This document shows, in pieces, positions 17,759 through 23,769 of a DNA stretch of 64,000 nt. The stretch's first letter is position 1, and every line of letters starts with the position of its first letter. The DNA is from an uncultured Acidobacteriota bacterium. Its GTDB lineage: Bacteria; Acidobacteriota; Terriglobia; UBA7540. The notes under the pieces are model-generated. The model had not been told where the DNA came from and searched no databases. It saw only the letters and a list, made by a program, of their open reading frames with translations. The stretch lies in contig CAWDSK010000006.1 of NCBI GenBank assembly GCA_963804995.1, positions 864,001-928,000 of the forward strand. The letters are read 5' to 3'. The translations under genes were made by a program, and so were the position numbers.

Positions 17759-18540
17759 ATGTTTACTCCACTCCTTTGCGCATTGGTTAGCATCCGAGCT
17801 TGGTTTCGAAGTTGAGCAGTGCTGCAAATGGAGAACCTTGCCCTGCGCCACCAACTGATAGTTCTTAAGAGGTCTCAGCGTGGCCGGCTTCGTCTGGACT
17901 CCGCCGACCGATGGCTTTGGATTTGGCTCGCTCGCTTCTGGTCGAACTGGCGCTCGGCGTTGCTCATCGTCAAGCCCGAAACGGTAATCGCCTGGCATCG
18001 CCAGGGATTCCGCTGGTATTGGAGATGGAAGAGTCGGCACGGCGAGCCGGGAAGGCCTACCATCGAGTTGGAGGTTCGGGAGTTGATCCGAAAGATGAGT
18101 CTGGCGAACCCGCTCTGGGGAGCACCCCGTATTCATGGGGAATTGCTCAAGCTCGGAATCCAAGTGTCACAAGCCACAGTCGCGAAGTACATGGCTCGGC
18201 AACGAAGACCGCCATCCCAGACGTGGCGTACTTTCCTTGAGAACCACGTGCAGCAGTTGGTTGCGACGGACTTCTTCGTCGTGCCGACCGTCACTTTTCG
18301 ACTCCTATACGTCTTTATCGTCTTGGCGCACGATAGGAGACGCCTACTCCATTTTAACGTCACCGCCCATCCCACTTCCGAATGGACGGCGCAACAGCTG
18401 GTTGAGGCGTTCCCTTGGGACAGCGCGCCACGCTACCTGCTCCACGATCGCGACTCGATTTATGAAGGGGCATTCCGTCAACGAGTTCGGAGGATGGCGA
18501 TTCAGGAAGTTCTGACGGCCCCCAGATCGCCTTGGCAGAA
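17759..18540 (+). pseudogene. Integrase-core (rve) transposase, 5' part
   Basis: ENLALRHQ, RIHGELLKLG, DFF, HDRD and PRSPWQ motifs; in-frame TGA at 17813; cut at 18540. Confidence 0.88.
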
Positions 18541-18543
18541 GGC

Positions 18544-20637
18544 TTATGCTTCATACTGCACCTCATTGGTATGATTCGAGGGGTCCTCGAAGAATCGCTG
18601 CCTGGCAGCGAGCTTCGTCCCTTGCATCTTGCGCGGCGGATCATCGCCGGGGTGTTCATATAAACACTCGTTTTTCTCGTTGTAGGCTTGAGCTCTTAAC
18701 AGACCATGGTCCCGCCAGACTTTCACCCACCCGGTGGAGATGCCGAGCAGCTTAGCCATCTCTTGCAGGGTCAACAGGCCGGCTCCGCGTAGGCGAGTGT
18801 AACCGCTCTTCAAGGCATAGTTACGCCGTATGCGCGCGACGATGTGAGGGCTGAAGGGCCTGCCTTCGCCCGAGAGCCAGCCGCGTTCATTCAGCAGGCT
18901 AGCGATCTGCCGATCGGTACGTTGATCCAGGAGCCGGTCGATCTCCGCCACCACCTCCGGCTTGGTGGTGCGCTGTTTCCAGGCATTGAGGGGGATGGGC
19001 AAATGCAGGGTCTTTGTAGCTCCCCCCTTGAAGCGGATCTGAAGCGTGATCTCATGGTTGCGGGTCAACGTGACGTCTTCCAATAGAAGGCGGACCATAC
19101 GCTTCCGTTCTCGATGTGGCGTTTTCGCATCGCGCCACAGCCGAGGGAAGTCTGTGGCCAGGGCAAAAATCTGAGCGCGTTCCTCTTCCCGACACAACCC
19201 ACGGTCGACCTGACGTTGACGTTGATACTCTTGCTGAGCCTCTCCCAGAGCACGCAGCTTGTGGTTCCAGTCGGCCTCGAGCGAATCCGCCACGAGCCGG
19301 TTGTCGGGATCGCAACGCAAGTAGCGCCGCTCGGCCAGCTCCGCCTCATACCGGGCGCGCTCAACTTGGGTTTGGCGCAACCGATCCGCTTCTTCCCAAC
19401 GAGACTGAAGTTCTTGCTGCACGCTCAGCGCCACCTCCAGGGCTAACGGAGTGACCACTTCGATCAGCAGTTCCCCGATGGCCTGGTCGATACCCGCTCC
19501 AGGAACCGTCTGGCAGATGGTTTGAGCGTGTTCGATACCGTACCGCTGACACACATAATGGGGGGCCAGGCGTGACCGGTGAACATGATAACGCACGGTC
19601 ATCCGATTCCCACAGCGGCCACAGATCACTAATCCCTGCAGAAGCGCTGGACCTTCCCGCGGAGGGCTTTGACGACGGTCGGGACCCCAAGCTTGCGCGG
19701 ATTCCCGTAACCGCCGCTGATTGCTCTCATATTCTTCCCAGGAGAGGTAACCCGCATGGGCCCCAGGAAGGCAAGTGTCCCACTCCTCGCGAGGCAACCA
19801 CTTCACCGTCACGCCACCCTCCAGCTTCTTGCGCGTCTGACTCCGGCCAAAGACGTAGGCCCCGGCATACCGAGGATTGTGCAAAACGCGCAGGACATGG
19901 CTGTGAACAAGTTCCACCCATACCAACTCTCCTTGGTGGGGCCCCGCCCGCAGGCGGCGGGGAAACAGCAGCCCCTGCTGGCGAAAGGCCTTCACCGTGG
20001 CCAGGGCGGATCCCGTACGACGGAAGGTTTCAAACAAGAGTCGAAGGCCCTGTTGCACCTGCTGGTCCGGATCGAGAACGAGTTGCCCCGAGCCGTTATA
20101 GACCAAGCCGACCGGAGGTGGGATCTCCAACTCACCGCGCCGAGCTTTGCTGAGGATTCCGCCTCGCAACCGGGCTCGCAGCACGTGCAGTTCCGCCTCG
20201 CTCATCGTGCCTTTCAGCCCCAACAGCAGGCGGTCATTAAAGTGCGCCGGGTCGTAGATGCCATCTTCATCCAAAATGAGCGTGTCGGTGAGCGCGCAGA
20301 TCTCCAGCAGTCGATGCCAGTCCGTGGAGTTGCGCGCCAGGCGCGACACCTCGAGACCCAGAACGATCCCTGCTCGCCCCATCCCCACTTCACTCACCAA
20401 CCTTTGAAATCCCTCTCGGTCTACCGCCGAAGCTCCCGACTGGCCTTGATCGTTGTCGATCACGATGATCCGTTCCAAAGGCCAGCCCAGGGCCACGGCC
20501 TGTTGGCGTAACGCGTACTGGCGCTGGGTGCTCTCGGTATTCTCAAAGACCTGCCGAAGCGTGGACTGCCGGATATACAGGTAGGCGTCGCGTTTCAAAT
20601 GGTGGGCTTGAACCTTCTGCGGCATTTCGGTTCTCAT
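18544..20637 (-). CDS. Large serine recombinase (resolvase, recombinase, Zn ribbon, coiled coil)
   Basis: YIRQS catalytic Ser, SRLARN, LHNPRYAG, CGRCG...C...C. Confidence 0.95.
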   Translation of the reverse strand: MRTEMPQKVQAHHLKRDAYLYIRQSTLRQVFENTESTQRQYALRQQAVALGWPLERIIVIDNDQGQSGASAVDREGFQRLVSEVGMGRAGIVLGLEVSRLARNSTDWHRLLEICALTDTLILDEDGIYDPAHFNDRLLLGLKGTMSEAELHVLRARLRGGILSKARRGELEIPPPVGLVYNGSGQLVLDPDQQVQQGLRLLFETFRRTGSALATVKAFRQQGLLFPRRLRAGPHQGELVWVELVHSHVLRVLHNPRYAGAYVFGRSQTRKKLEGGVTVKWLPREEWDTCLPGAHAGYLSWEEYESNQRRLRESAQAWGPDRRQSPPREGPALLQGLVICGRCGNRMTVRYHVHRSRLAPHYVCQRYGIEHAQTICQTVPGAGIDQAIGELLIEVVTPLALEVALSVQQELQSRWEEADRLRQTQVERARYEAELAERRYLRCDPDNRLVADSLEADWNHKLRALGEAQQEYQRQRQVDRGLCREEERAQIFALATDFPRLWRDAKTPHRERKRMVRLLLEDVTLTRNHEITLQIRFKGGATKTLHLPIPLNAWKQRTTKPEVVAEIDRLLDQRTDRQIASLLNERGWLSGEGRPFSPHIVARIRRNYALKSGYTRLRGAGLLTLQEMAKLLGISTGWVKVWRDHGLLRAQAYNEKNECLYEHPGDDPPRKMQGTKLAARQRFFEDPSNHTNEVQYEA

Positions 20638-20939
20638 CCTCTCACCTCCGGCCGACTGTGAAGTACCATGCTCGCCAGAATCGTAACCACTTCCGTGTGC
20701 AGATCGAGAGGAACCCTCTCCTCAGGGCCGGACGGATTCTGGGGTTTCATCGGAATCCCACCCGGCAGGCAGTGGGACCAGGCTTCCATCCAGCCTTTCA
20801 TCCCCTGGCGAATAAACAGCGCCAGGCCCAAGGCTCCGCGCCTGCCGCCTAACTCACCCCGCACTTGTCGCCGGAGTTCCTCATATTGGTTTACGATCCC
20901 CTCCTGGGCCATCAGGGGAGCAACGGGAGGGTCGCTCAA
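20634..20939 (-). CDS. Small hypothetical protein of the recombinase element
   Basis: The TTG start overlaps the upstream stop (TTGA), and its own stop overlaps the recombinase ATG (ATGA). Confidence 0.7.
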   Translation of the reverse strand: MSDPPVAPLMAQEGIVNQYEELRRQVRGELGGRRGALGLALFIRQGMKGWMEAWSHCLPGGIPMKPQNPSGPEERVPLDLHTEVVTILASMVLHSRPEVRG

Positions 20940-21403
20940 CGTCGTTTTTTTTGCTGCTGCCGAAGCCGGCGCTCCAAGCTGCGAGGATGGACCCGTAGAC
21001 GGAAGGCTTTCTTCACCCGGGCCGCCAGTTCCTCGCTCCGCAAGGAGGGTTCGGCAGCTCGGGCCTGCCGGACGAACTCCATTACCTCGGCCGTGAGCTT
21101 GTGGGCGTGCCGAGGTCCCCGTTTCTGGGGAATCAATCCTGCGAGTCCCCTGGCTACGAAGCCCGCCTGGGCGAGGTAGAAGGAGGGTCTGGAGAAACCA
21201 AAAGCCTCCGCCGCTTGGCTCACCGCTTGGTTTTCGACCCTCACTTGGCGCAGCATCTCGTACTTGACCTGCAGCAAGTCCCGGGGATCGAAGAAGTCGC
21301 TGTCCTGGAACAGGGCGTGGGCCACCTCCTGCGGGCGGGGATTCAAGGTACCTTGGGAGCGCAGGATATGGCGCTTGGCATCGTGGCGTGAGGAAGGGGA
21401 CAT
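20936..21403 (-). CDS. Helix-turn-helix protein
   Basis: VSQAAEAFGFSRPSFY HTH; GGAGGAG RBS. Confidence 0.85.
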   Translation of the reverse strand: MSPSSRHDAKRHILRSQGTLNPRPQEVAHALFQDSDFFDPRDLLQVKYEMLRQVRVENQAVSQAAEAFGFSRPSFYLAQAGFVARGLAGLIPQKRGPRHAHKLTAEVMEFVRQARAAEPSLRSEELAARVKKAFRLRVHPRSLERRLRQQQKKRR

Positions 21404-21444
21404 GGGCTCCTCCGGAGCAAATCCGGCAAACGAGTGTAATGTTA

Positions 21445-21473
21445 ATTATATACATTCTCTTGCTCCCTGTCAA
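21445..21473 (-). promoter_or_regulatory. Consensus sigma70 promoter for the HTH-orf-recombinase operon
   Basis: TTGACA-N17-TATAAT, exact consensus. Confidence 0.85.
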
Positions 21474-21623
21474 GCCTTTTCTATCCTCCGACCCGAATTT
21501 GTGTTGCACAATAAGCGGATATTGCACTCACACACCCACCGAAAACTCTGGACTTCGGCTCAAGCTCCGACATAATCCCTTTAACACAAACGGCGTAATT
21601 CCCTTTACAGACCTTCCGGGGCT

Positions 21624-21918
21624 TCAGGACCGTAAACCCTCCACCAAACGCACCAATTCAATCAGGTCCTCAACGCGAAAATACGAGCGGCCTCCCCCTA
21701 TGACCACGAATGGGTCCTCCCCCACGACACTCGTCCACCGCGCCGGTAGCGAGGTCAACTGGCCTCCTTCGTCGTAGAAATACACTCGGTCCTCCCCCCA
21801 GTTCTGGCGGTAGTCCACCCATTCGAATTCACGTTGGAACAGTGGATGGTAAGGGTGAGTTACTCGGAAACGTCGTTTTGAATAGTCTCTATGGTGTGTA
21901 GTTGACAACCTGATCCAA
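21624..21918 (-). CDS. DUF5372 / Y4bD-like protein, 5' end cut by the recombination junction
   Basis: RVTHPYHPL...WGEDRV...SLPARWT motif. The frame runs into the element boundary. Confidence 0.75.
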
Positions 21919-22168
21919 TCCATACGTCGAGCGCCTAGTGGGCTCGATCCGGCGCGAGTGCCTGGACCATGTTGTTGTGTTCAACGAGTCTTCTCTGCGT
22001 GGCCTTCTAAATTCTTATTTCGCGTATTACCTACATTCGCGAACACATCTGGCGTTGGTGAAGGATGCCCCGGAAGCGAGGGTTATCCAAGGGCCGGAAT
22101 TCGGTGCCGTGGCAGAGATCCCCGAAGTTGGAGGACTCCATCACCGTTATGAACGGCGAGCAGCTTGA
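21919..22168 (+). pseudogene. rve transposase, 3' part
   Basis: PYVERLVGSIRRECLDH...GGLHHRYERRAA. Confidence 0.88.
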
Positions 22169-22873: not shown

Positions 22874-23265
22874 ACTATCTTGCGGCCACACCTCCCCTCA
22901 GCAAATCCCAATCACACTCCTCAAGATAGAACGGACGGCTTCTTCGCCAGCATACATTCACACCCCTGACGTAGAAGAACCCCAGACCTCAAACGGCAGA
23001 GGTCCGTGCTGTAGTTGCTGAAGCGCTCGAAGCCGCGTAGCGGCGGCAGAATGTGGCCCATGGCGTGAGAAGGTGTGAAAAAATACCATTTTCACCGCTG
23101 AGACGCTGAGACGCAGAGAAATGAGCTTTTGGTTGCGGCTCCGCCACGCTGCGTCTCTGCCCCTCTGCGGTGAACCTGCCAATTCTTTCGCAAAGGCACG
23201 AGATCTCCACCACAACCTTGCACCCAGGACCGATTTCGGACAATGTGACGCCCATCGCTTACGAT

Positions 23266-23285
23266 TTGGGCTACCGGTAGCCCAA
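23266..23285. repeat. Perfect palindrome, copy 1
   Basis: TTGGGCTACCGGTAGCCCAA; also present at 58626-58645. Confidence 0.9.
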
Positions 23286-23402
23286 GTGTACATCTTTTTT
23301 ATATAATTACACCAACTATAAATGTTAATATAAATGTGAAGTGTCAGGCGCTGAGTGCCAAGTACTAGGTGCTTGGGGCTGAGGGCTGGGGAGAAGCCGT
23401 AA

Positions 23403-23546
23403 GCAGCGAGCGTTTTTTGCGAGTCCCGACAAGTCGGGATGGGCAGCGAGCGCTTTTTGCGAGTCCCGACAAGTCGGGATGGGCAGCGAGCGCTTTTTGC
23501 GAGTCCCGACAAGTCGGGAAAGGCAGCGAGCGGGATTTGCGAGTCC
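23403..23546 (+). repeat. 40-bp tandem repeat (about 3.6 copies) with internal hairpin
   Basis: GCAGCGAGCGCTTTTTGCGAGTCCCGACAAGTCGGGATGG; no spacers. Confidence 0.9.
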
Positions 23547-23769
23547 TAGTGGGCCAGGGTGGACAGCATGCTGACTCCTGATTTCCAACTTCTGATTCCA
23601 GAAATCTGACTAGTGCATGAAGTCAACGGTAAGTTGTCGCCTGTGAGCTGTCAGCCCTAAAAGGTAATTCCAACTTCTGGGAAGTCCGCCGCGTCACCAG
23701 CCGGCTGCTGAAAATCATACCCCGAGAGCGCAGAATGGAACCCGTGGAAGCGAGCAGAGAGGACCTACT

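Follow-up and report, generated by a model that had tools for sequence, protein, structure and literature searches.

A serine-recombinase element with a gene probably divided by its own recombination site

We analysed a 64,000-nucleotide stretch of DNA (the window) from an uncultured Acidobacteriota bacterium (GenBank assembly GCA_963804995.1, contig CAWDSK010000006.1, positions 864,001 to 928,000 of the forward strand), which contains a mobile element of the large serine recombinase (LSR) type. The element occupies window positions 18541–21918 (3378 bp), has a TT/AA crossover core, and carries on its minus strand, in this order, a DUF5372 gene, a perfect sigma-70 promoter, a gene for a helix-turn-helix (HTH) protein, the small open reading frame (ORF) orf102, and the LSR gene (Table 1). 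A preliminary description, made from the letters of the window, had proposed that DUF5372 is completed only by excision of the element. Our analysis points to the same arrangement, in which the start of DUF5372 and its body lie at opposite ends of the integrated element and would probably meet only on an excised circle.

Table 1. Features of the element and of the interrupted host gene in the window
Feature	Position	Strand	Basis or remark
Host IS481/IS3-like DDE transposase, N-terminal part, ending ...SPWQ	17816..18538	+	Reading frame, NCBIfam
Left AA core (TT on the gene strand; attL core)	18539..18540	.	Empty site overlaps by these 2 bases
Left arm of predicted attP	18541..18564	-	Shine-Dalgarno sequence, DUF5372 start and 11 nt to the core; overlaps the last LSR codons and stop
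LSR, 697 aa	18544..20637	-	Pfam, PHROGs, AlphaFold2 secondary structure
orf102	20634..20942	-	Conserved small ORF between HTH and LSR
HTH protein, 155 aa	20936..21403	-	HTH_32, HTH_29, HTH_28
Internal promoter, TTGACA-17-TATAAT	21445..21473	-	12/12 consensus positions; 40 nt upstream of the HTH start
DUF5372 body	21624..21916	-	PF17342; 17-codon leader after the junction codon, predicted SH3/KOW-like barrel, C-terminal helix
Right arm of predicted attP	21893..21916	-	Encodes the DUF5372 leader (..STT.. codons); quasi-symmetric to the left arm
Right AA core (attR core)	21917..21918	.	Sequence reading, copy comparison, contigs skipping the element
Host transposase, C-terminal part, NPYVERLVGSIRRECLDH...	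21917..22168	+	Reading frame, target consensus

The bounds of the element and its core follow from the copies in the source genome, an empty site, contigs that skip the element, and contigs bounded by the core. Specifically, the source genome (7.55 Mb in 9 contigs, 92% complete) contains four copies, which differ at only 7 alignment columns and lie in four different transposase genes, all at an SPWQ-N motif with AA at each end, and all four terminate at identical bases despite their four different flanks. At an empty site in the same genome, the overlap is exactly the 2-bp core. In peat-metagenome contigs of runs X2 and X3, position 18538 is joined to position 21917 with 3378 bases skipped, and a relative that differs at 120 of 3380 positions is assembled as a contig beginning exactly at 18539. 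Three further metagenome contigs (L024, L051 and L089) have their first base at the TT core and their last base 0–1 base past it, which is the appearance of a repeat collapsed by the assembler. Among 94 relatives, a TT core is shared by 89. Insertion is conservative at the 2-bp core, with precise empty sites and no target duplication beyond the core.

One copy of the source genome (L004, contig C6, 764612–768001) carries a 1-nt insertion near element column 1562 that splits the LSR gene into ORFs of 123 aa and 616 aa, and either has lost autonomy or reflects a mistake of assembly, as far as can be guessed. A metagenome contig (L081) has CA instead of TT at the fixed core position on both the LSR side and the DUF5372 side, with the fusion still in frame, and may represent an element with an altered crossover dinucleotide.

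The crossover core probably lies within the DUF5372 gene

Reading from the core, the DUF5372 frame meets its first stop at 21624 and encodes 99 aa, of which the PF17342 domain, beginning at residue 21, is matched over its full model (positions 1–78 of 78; 79.8 bits against a gathering cut-off of 25; E 1.5e-22). In plasmid records, members of this family appear as 'DUF5372 family protein' and 'Y4bD/Y4pK family protein'. At the other end of the element, the minus strand reads a Shine-Dalgarno (SD) sequence GAGGTG (18564–18559), CAGT (18558–18555), ATG (18554–18552), and the LSR stop codon TAA (18546–18544). The SD sequence, the ATG, their overlap with the LSR stop and both AA cores match the sequence where the preliminary description had located them, as does the consensus promoter downstream of the DUF5372 body, with all 12 positions correct. 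Scripted joining of the two ends at the shared AA gives an in-frame ATG four codons ahead of the junction codon, so that the fusion described for the window copy holds for all four copies.

The two arms flanking the core resemble each other. In particular, profiles of 80 distinct right arms and 29 distinct left arms share GGTG(C/T)AGT at positions −22 to −15 and CC at positions −2 to −1, and the two arms of the window are identical at 13 of 24 positions by hand count. As read from these arms, the predicted attP is a quasi-palindromic site of ~50 bp centred on the core.

The DUF5372 ORF is intact in 94 of 96 loci (in L036 it runs off the contig, and in L054 a TAG interrupts the leader), and the median dN/dS of its domain is 0.25 over 982 pairs, a value of purifying selection; a decayed relic is ruled out by these two results. 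The 17-codon leader has a dN/dS of 0.79 and a dS of 0.75, compared with a dS of 1.15 for the domain. A low leader dS together with near-neutral protein evolution is expected if the leader doubles as an attP arm.

The split start is conserved among relatives

We compared 107 loci: 15 from one-genome-per-species contigs, the best 80 of 578 metagenome stretches, 8 plasmid loci drawn from 131 records with a match, and the four copies of the source genome. The relatives come from Acidobacteriota, Actinomycetota-like metagenome-assembled genomes, and alpha- and beta-proteobacterial plasmids, including those of Sinorhizobium, Rhizobium, Mesorhizobium, Burkholderia and Paraburkholderia, and their DUF5372 proteins are only 37–60% identical. 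The order DUF5372-HTH-(orf)-LSR is found in every locus with enough sequence, and LSR directly followed by DUF5372 is found in none of the loci.

The LSR 3′ end is available in 56 loci (49 genome or metagenome loci and 7 plasmid loci), and an ATG or GTG followed by 11 nt and the TT core is present in 54 of them (47/49 and 7/7, respectively). These 54 ends comprise 43 located by regular expression, 4 variant ends and 7 plasmid ends; the variant loci (L067, L078, L079 and L095) have GGAGG ten bases upstream of the start. The motif is absent from L009, in which the LSR 3′ end is replaced, and from L022, a distant element with different ends. When the ends are joined by script, the circle junction is stop-free and in frame into DUF5372 in 52 of the 56 loci (40 clean cases, L081, the 4 variants and 7 plasmid loci), although the loci are not independent, with 29 distinct left arms among 40. 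The homologues thus bear out the fusion whose conservation the preliminary description had proposed to check. L021 has a leader indel and is in frame only under a hand-placed boundary, and L056, which contains an internal duplication, was left out of the junction evaluation.

The position of the junction is likewise fixed relative to the protein: in 89 of 94 loci, the core stands exactly 18 codons ahead of the R in RVTH, a conserved motif, while L109 carries two inserted codons. As a baseline, 12 of 83 integrated relatives have, in their unrelated host flank, a canonical start that is in frame, no more than 10 codons away and not cut off by a stop. Judged from these sequence counts, a start at a fixed position of the junction (54/56 versus 12/83) is more than chance.

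The SD sequence and start could have been conserved as coding sequence for the LSR C-terminus. This candidate was ruled out, as the motif is kept where LSR stops upstream of the junction start (by 11–89 nt, in L065, L090, L092, L101, L067, L078, L079 and L095) and where LSR reads the motif in another frame (L021). In L021, L048 and L094, the LSR stop and the junction start overlap as RTGA. Furthermore, the first base of the start codon is only A or G, and the TG is invariant, in all 54 ends, while the right arm has T, C or A at the corresponding position.

The most distant relative with an LSR, L022, has three copies of an inverted repeat (GTGTTTCC ... GGAAACAC) in its first 200 positions, ahead of DUF5372, with in-frame ATGs there.

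Starts available to DUF5372 in the integrated state

Starts were surveyed in 94 loci, with L021, L056 and L087 excluded for broken geometry and L022 and L023 excluded as the most distant loci, with undefined ends; an upstream in-frame stop is reachable in 83 of the 94. No ATG, GTG or TTG lies between the upstream stop and the Pfam domain in 48 of these 83 integrated copies. The remaining copies have only host-derived starts (23/83, mostly 39–98 codons off and without an SD sequence), only an internal start (10/83, eight of which are a TTG at codon +4 without an SD sequence), or both kinds together (2/83). Several of the 12 near host starts are ATG or GTG codons that arise where the N-P-(Y/H) target codons are read as their reverse complement, which is also the case in the window.

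Two such starts, TTG 21908 and the host-derived ATG 21923, had been named in the preliminary description as possible sites of translation in the integrated state, and neither is conserved. Specifically, two of the four source-genome copies read TCG in place of TTG 21908, and across 94 relatives this codon is TCG in 28, TGT in 16, TTG in 9, and others in the rest. ATG 21923 arises when the Pro-Tyr codons found in one type of target are read as their reverse complement, and is missing at the other three insertion sites. The starts annotated by the Prokaryotic Genome Annotation Pipeline (PGAP) are also diverse: GTG in L105 and, in S. meliloti, an ATA on which the pipeline had to fall back. Many plasmid records have no coding sequence beneath the DUF5372 match; PLSDB omits pseudogenes. 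In the integrated state, DUF5372 has no known promoter in front of it and lies antisense to the host gene.

DUF5372 is predicted to bind the recombinase near its coiled coil

The AlphaFold2 model of DUF5372, built from 55 sequences (predicted local distance difference test, pLDDT, 73.5), consists of disordered residues 1–13, a five-stranded small barrel and a C-terminal helix. A Foldseek search against the PDB returned nothing at E ≤ 0.001, its top rows being the KOW part of ribosomal protein eS4, and a profile search found no sequence relative in the PDB at E ≤ 1. The predicted fold is a generic small barrel only, SH3/KOW-like.

A model of the complex of LSR and DUF5372 scores 0.71 in three of three runs, compared with 0.00 for the best of three controls; the mark of 0.71 is reached by 116 of 157 solved complexes and by 2 of 215 mismatched pairs, a calibration that is only roughly valid here, as our own 17-row alignments were used. 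Agreement between the runs extends to at least 74% of contacts, with a partner pLDDT of 69 or more. In the model, LSR residues 338–343, 394–413, 482–518 and 523–541, which in the AlphaFold2 model of LSR form the zinc ribbon, the foot of the coiled-coil hairpin (residues 397–478), and the helices and strands that follow, are positioned to contact DUF5372 residues 22–26, the invariant HPxHP stretch, and 68–96. Since DUF5372 has no sequence relative in the PDB, the predictor probably did not reach this score by having memorised a similar solved structure.

The recombination directionality factor (RDF) gp3 of phage phiC31 has been reported to bind the hinge between zinc domain and coiled coil of its serine integrase (PMC5814800). 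The complex model supports binding of DUF5372 to LSR at the coiled coil's base, where directionality factors bind. Among the candidate roles given to DUF5372 in the preliminary description, that in directionality gains from the complex model, and that in replication gains no support.

The recombinase and the remaining genes of the element

LSR matches PF00239 (Resolvase, E 1.7e-18), PF07508 (Recombinase, E 3.3e-14) and PF13408 (Zn-ribbon, E 1.6e-9), all above cut-off, and its best PHROGs match is phrog_95, an integrase (E 8.6e-51); the XisF and Ccr models match below cut-off. In the AlphaFold2 model (pLDDT 74.8), the long antiparallel helices 397–441 and 447–478 form the coiled-coil hairpin, and the C-terminal extension contains a MerR/HTH_17-like motif. 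By its domains and its predicted coiled-coil insertion, LSR is a serine integrase, and it is the predicted catalyst of both attP x attB and attL x attR recombination. The LSR ORF (20637–18544) is intact when the element is integrated, and the split gene is DUF5372, unlike in SSV-type elements, in which the recombinase gene is split.

In three relatives (L011, L026 and L028), the LSR stop lies outside the element, with reading continuing 74–77 nt into host DNA, so that in these elements the C-terminus of LSR would differ between the integrated and circular states. In L030, a second, distant LSR gene (positions 778–2664, 35% identity) lies on the same strand ~330 bp upstream of the DUF5372 element.

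The product of orf102, which is kept in most relatives as judged by tblastn, has no family match in Pfam, NCBIfam, PHROGs or the ESM Atlas. The HTH protein resembles the N-terminal DNA-binding part of transposases (IS630, E 7e-11; IS481, E 6e-10; both below cut-off), and is thus likened to the same type of gene that the element targets. It could be a transposase domain captured for regulation or targeting.

The region contains three consensus-type promoter sites, compared with a shuffle mean of 1.0. Since the internal promoter is complete, a promoter formed at the junction is not required for the operon. Between DUF5372 and the promoter region, a scan found no terminator on the minus strand after DUF5372, and the RNA fold of 21640–21475 has a z of −0.48.

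The element inserts in transposase genes

The host gene is interrupted between ...SPWQ and NPYVER.... Its N-terminal part matches two NCBIfam models, IS481 (E 2.2e-12, up to model position 228 of 284) and IS3 (E 3.2e-12), and truncation of the protein keeps both matches below cut-off. Alignment of 33 left and 80 right distinct sites gives the target consensus ..(R/H)SP(W/Q)(Q/A)↓N(A/G/P)x(A/V/C)E(R/S).., with the arrow marking the insertion point, in which GAGCG is nearly invariant. We take the E of this motif to be the third catalytic residue of DDE transposases. In the transposase genes, the cut falls five codons ahead of E(R/S), a conserved motif, and this bears on the control of transposon loads in soil bacteria. 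The plasmid copies are located within or beside IS21 and IS66 genes and, together with the target in rve-type transposase genes, make the element a parasite of insertion sequences.

At the empty site of the source genome (L005, contig C6), the transposase ORF (721–1443) stops ~58 nt short of the target motif, with the site near L005 position 1501, and the host insertion sequence there looks to be itself broken. Just past the host insertion sequence of the window, at 22950–23600, a peptide (...RCPSRLVGTRKKRSLPIPTCRDSQK...) recurs several times in overlapping minus-strand ORFs, which suggests a tandem DNA repeat.

A proposed two-state circuit and its alternatives

We consider it likely that DUF5372 is split by attP, is whole only on the excised circle, and then acts on LSR. 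In the proposed mechanism, the LSR element would insert at a TT/AA core in DNA encoding the SPxx↓NxxxE(R/S) motif of rve-type (IS481/IS3-like) transposases, with attP placed between codons 5 and 6 of DUF5372, the fourth gene. In the integrated state, the internal consensus promoter would express HTH, orf102 and LSR, while the DUF5372 body, lying upstream of this promoter behind arbitrary host DNA and without an SD sequence or conserved start, would be silent. Excision would join the ends and fuse the SD sequence and the ATG or GTG over the LSR stop in frame with the DUF5372 body. On the circle, DUF5372 would thus become the translationally coupled last gene, with the promoter reading through LSR into DUF5372. 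The protein, a predicted SH3-like barrel with a helix, would bind the zinc-domain/coiled-coil hinge of LSR and alter the next action of the recombinase, at best guess by favouring attP x attB integration or by blocking re-excision. The element would in this way sense whether it is free or inserted, and integration would split the gene again and reset the switch. In this proposal, the boundaries, the conserved geometry, the lack of starts and the purifying selection are read from sequence, the binding site is modelled, and we infer that the circle forms, that a transcript spans the joint and which way DUF5372 turns the recombinase.

A protein made only after excision cannot start excision, and for this reason a role in committing to integration or opposing excision is favoured, if tentatively and at less than even chance. 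About equally tentative is the specific form in which DUF5372 would be an 'inverse' directionality factor, made only by the circle, that docks on the coiled-coil hinge of LSR, turns it from excision-competent to integration-committed, and possibly displaces an RDF encoded by orf102 or HTH, with integration destroying the gene and resetting the switch. If true, the element would hold a self-sensing two-state recombination circuit, spread from Acidobacteriota to rhizobial plasmids, in an element that knocks out a transposon catalytic motif.

Several observations weigh against the reading that DUF5372 is made only by the circle and acts on LSR. A degenerate junction motif (left-arm motif, N10, TT, N11, right-arm motif) occurs in none of 111 loci, nor in the source genome or in 401 genomes of the phylum. 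Contigs joined as a circle (18541 back to 21918) are absent from the assembled contigs of four runs, which contain only an integrated relative and empty sites, although contigs drop rare forms, and their absence from contigs says nothing on circles. The SD sequence and start lie inside attP, where the right arm, too, shows conservation at the mirror-image positions (1.2–1.9 bits), and recombinase binding could explain much of their sequence conservation. Moreover, attP tolerates no indels, so that conservation of the frame is nearly automatic once established, and the left-arm profile is partly selected by the regular expression used to find left arms. Host starts within 10 codons in 12 of 83 copies make translation in the integrated state possible in some of them, a TTG stands at codon +4 in others, and PGAP uses an internal ATG as the start in L104, while L054 has a TAG stop in the DUF5372 leader. 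On the structural side, the best VIA-align matches of DUF5372 (Spt5 KOW, NdhS, NusG, SH3 and Tudor) are weak, with a Z of at most 4.5, and expression only after excision would exclude a classical RDF, which makes the direction of the effect a guess. Two matches to the junction motif in viral contigs were rejected as chance, as these contigs have no homology to any of the four element proteins. The runs listed as containing matching sequence are 24 DNA metagenomes, in which the share does not exceed 0.32, and none of those listed is an RNA run.

The points on attP lead to the alternative that the junction start is a by-product of attP, in which the ATG or GTG and GAGGTG are only recombinase-binding bases and DUF5372 is translated while integrated, from TTG +4, a host ATG or GTG, or non-canonical codons. 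The occurrence of GGTG(C/T)AGT in both arms and the conserved mirrored positions fit this alternative, as do the 35 of 83 integrated copies with some canonical in-frame start and the annotated starts ATG (L104), GTG (L105) and ATA (L106). Nevertheless, 48 of the 83 copies have no canonical start, no alternative start is conserved, even among the four copies of the source genome, and almost none has an SD sequence; the integrated gene, antisense to the host gene and without a known promoter, is still under purifying selection. Recombinase binding is also insufficient in view of the restriction of the first base to A or G before an invariant TG, where the right arm has T, C or A, the retention of the motif where it does not encode LSR, the RTGA overlaps, and the presence of a selected ORF that needs a start, for which most copies offer no other. 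We therefore regard this alternative as improbable.

A different function for a circle-only DUF5372 is somewhat easier to entertain, if still unlikely, namely that of a classical excision RDF, with a rare first circle triggering excision of sibling copies in trans by positive feedback and preventing re-insertion of circles for as long as the factor has not been diluted. The site at which binding is predicted agrees with that of RDFs, many genomes hold several copies (four here, and four in the genome of L012–L015), and integrated SSV-type elements are reported likewise to rely on an intact episomal copy (PMC8371274). Such a factor would be absent when needed and could not start excision, yet the elements clearly proliferate within genomes; judging from established RDF behaviour as reported (PMC5814800), it would, in addition, inhibit integration, on which a circle that does not replicate depends. 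Least probable of all, with only a slim chance, is a circle-specific DUF5372 without a role in recombination, such as repression of its own strong promoter, or a delay of replication or cell division that lasts until the non-replicating circle is back in the chromosome or plasmid. The SH3/KOW/Tudor-like fold is generic and found in nucleic-acid binders, and no terminator separates DUF5372 from the promoter region, both of which would suit such a role, but the LSR complex model passes with controls at 0.00, and the strongly conserved HPxHPL and C-terminal helices lie in the predicted LSR interface. Splitting of DUF5372 by attP, with action of the completed protein on LSR, remains our preferred reading.

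Comparison with known systems

The preliminary description knew of no account of this arrangement, and our literature searches are consistent with this. In the literature searched, which left most subscription journals outside its scope, no paper mentions 'DUF5372', no relevant biological paper was found for y4bD, y4pK, y4bA or y4pH, and neither the element nor any separation of a start codon from its ORF was found described, including in the sections of Durrant et al. 2022 (PMC10083194) that the searches covered. State-dependent expression is known for mobile elements, but none of the closest known cases, compared below, pairs an intact bacterial LSR with an accessory gene that has its start codon at the other end of the element.

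If true, the arrangement would be a clean natural example of translation reporting the excised or integrated state, through a start/ORF split rather than a split promoter, and would give a role to DUF5372, a widespread family (131 plasmid records and 578 metagenome stretches). Serine integrases are tools of genome engineering, in which control of directionality is an open practical problem. A predicted hinge binder of ~100 residues, together with a recombinase whose ~50-bp site lies in a conserved coding motif, is relevant to such control and testable in vitro.

Expression created by joining ends is known from the circle junction promoters of the IS3/IS911 type and from the circle-dependent transcription of Tn916. 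These act by transcription only, whereas here the start codon is separated from the ORF. In Tn4451 and Tn4453 of Clostridium, which are moved by the LSR TnpX, the joint of the circle reportedly forms a promoter for TnpX. The element described here resembles them as a transposon-like element moved by an LSR, presumably through a circular intermediate, in which the joint would alter gene expression. Unlike in Tn4451, the joint would build a coding sequence, consisting of SD sequence, start and body, rather than a promoter, the affected gene encodes an accessory protein rather than the recombinase, and the LSR has its own internal consensus promoter. In addition, our LSR has no DUF4368 match in Pfam, a domain that Durrant et al. 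tie to the TndX-like clade of multi-targeting LSRs (PMC10083194).

The 'suicidal' tyrosine integrases of the SSV type (SSV1, pTN3 and pT26-2) are reported to carry attP inside their own gene, which integration breaks in two and which only the circle holds in one piece (PMC8371274), and the element shares with them a recombination site inside one of its own genes that is split when integrated. However, theirs are tyrosine recombinases of archaeal viruses and plasmids in which the integrase itself is split, whereas here a bacterial serine recombinase stays intact and it is a small partner protein whose gene loses, by the split, no more than its SD sequence, its start and 4 codons. A further parallel is to the RDFs of serine integrases such as phiC31 gp3, with which DUF5372 shares small size, an accessory gene next to that of the integrase, and predicted binding at the hinge. 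DUF5372 differs from them in having no sequence relation or clear fold relation, and in its expression, which is predicted to follow excision only and would thus come too late for an excision factor, so that the sign of its effect may be opposite.

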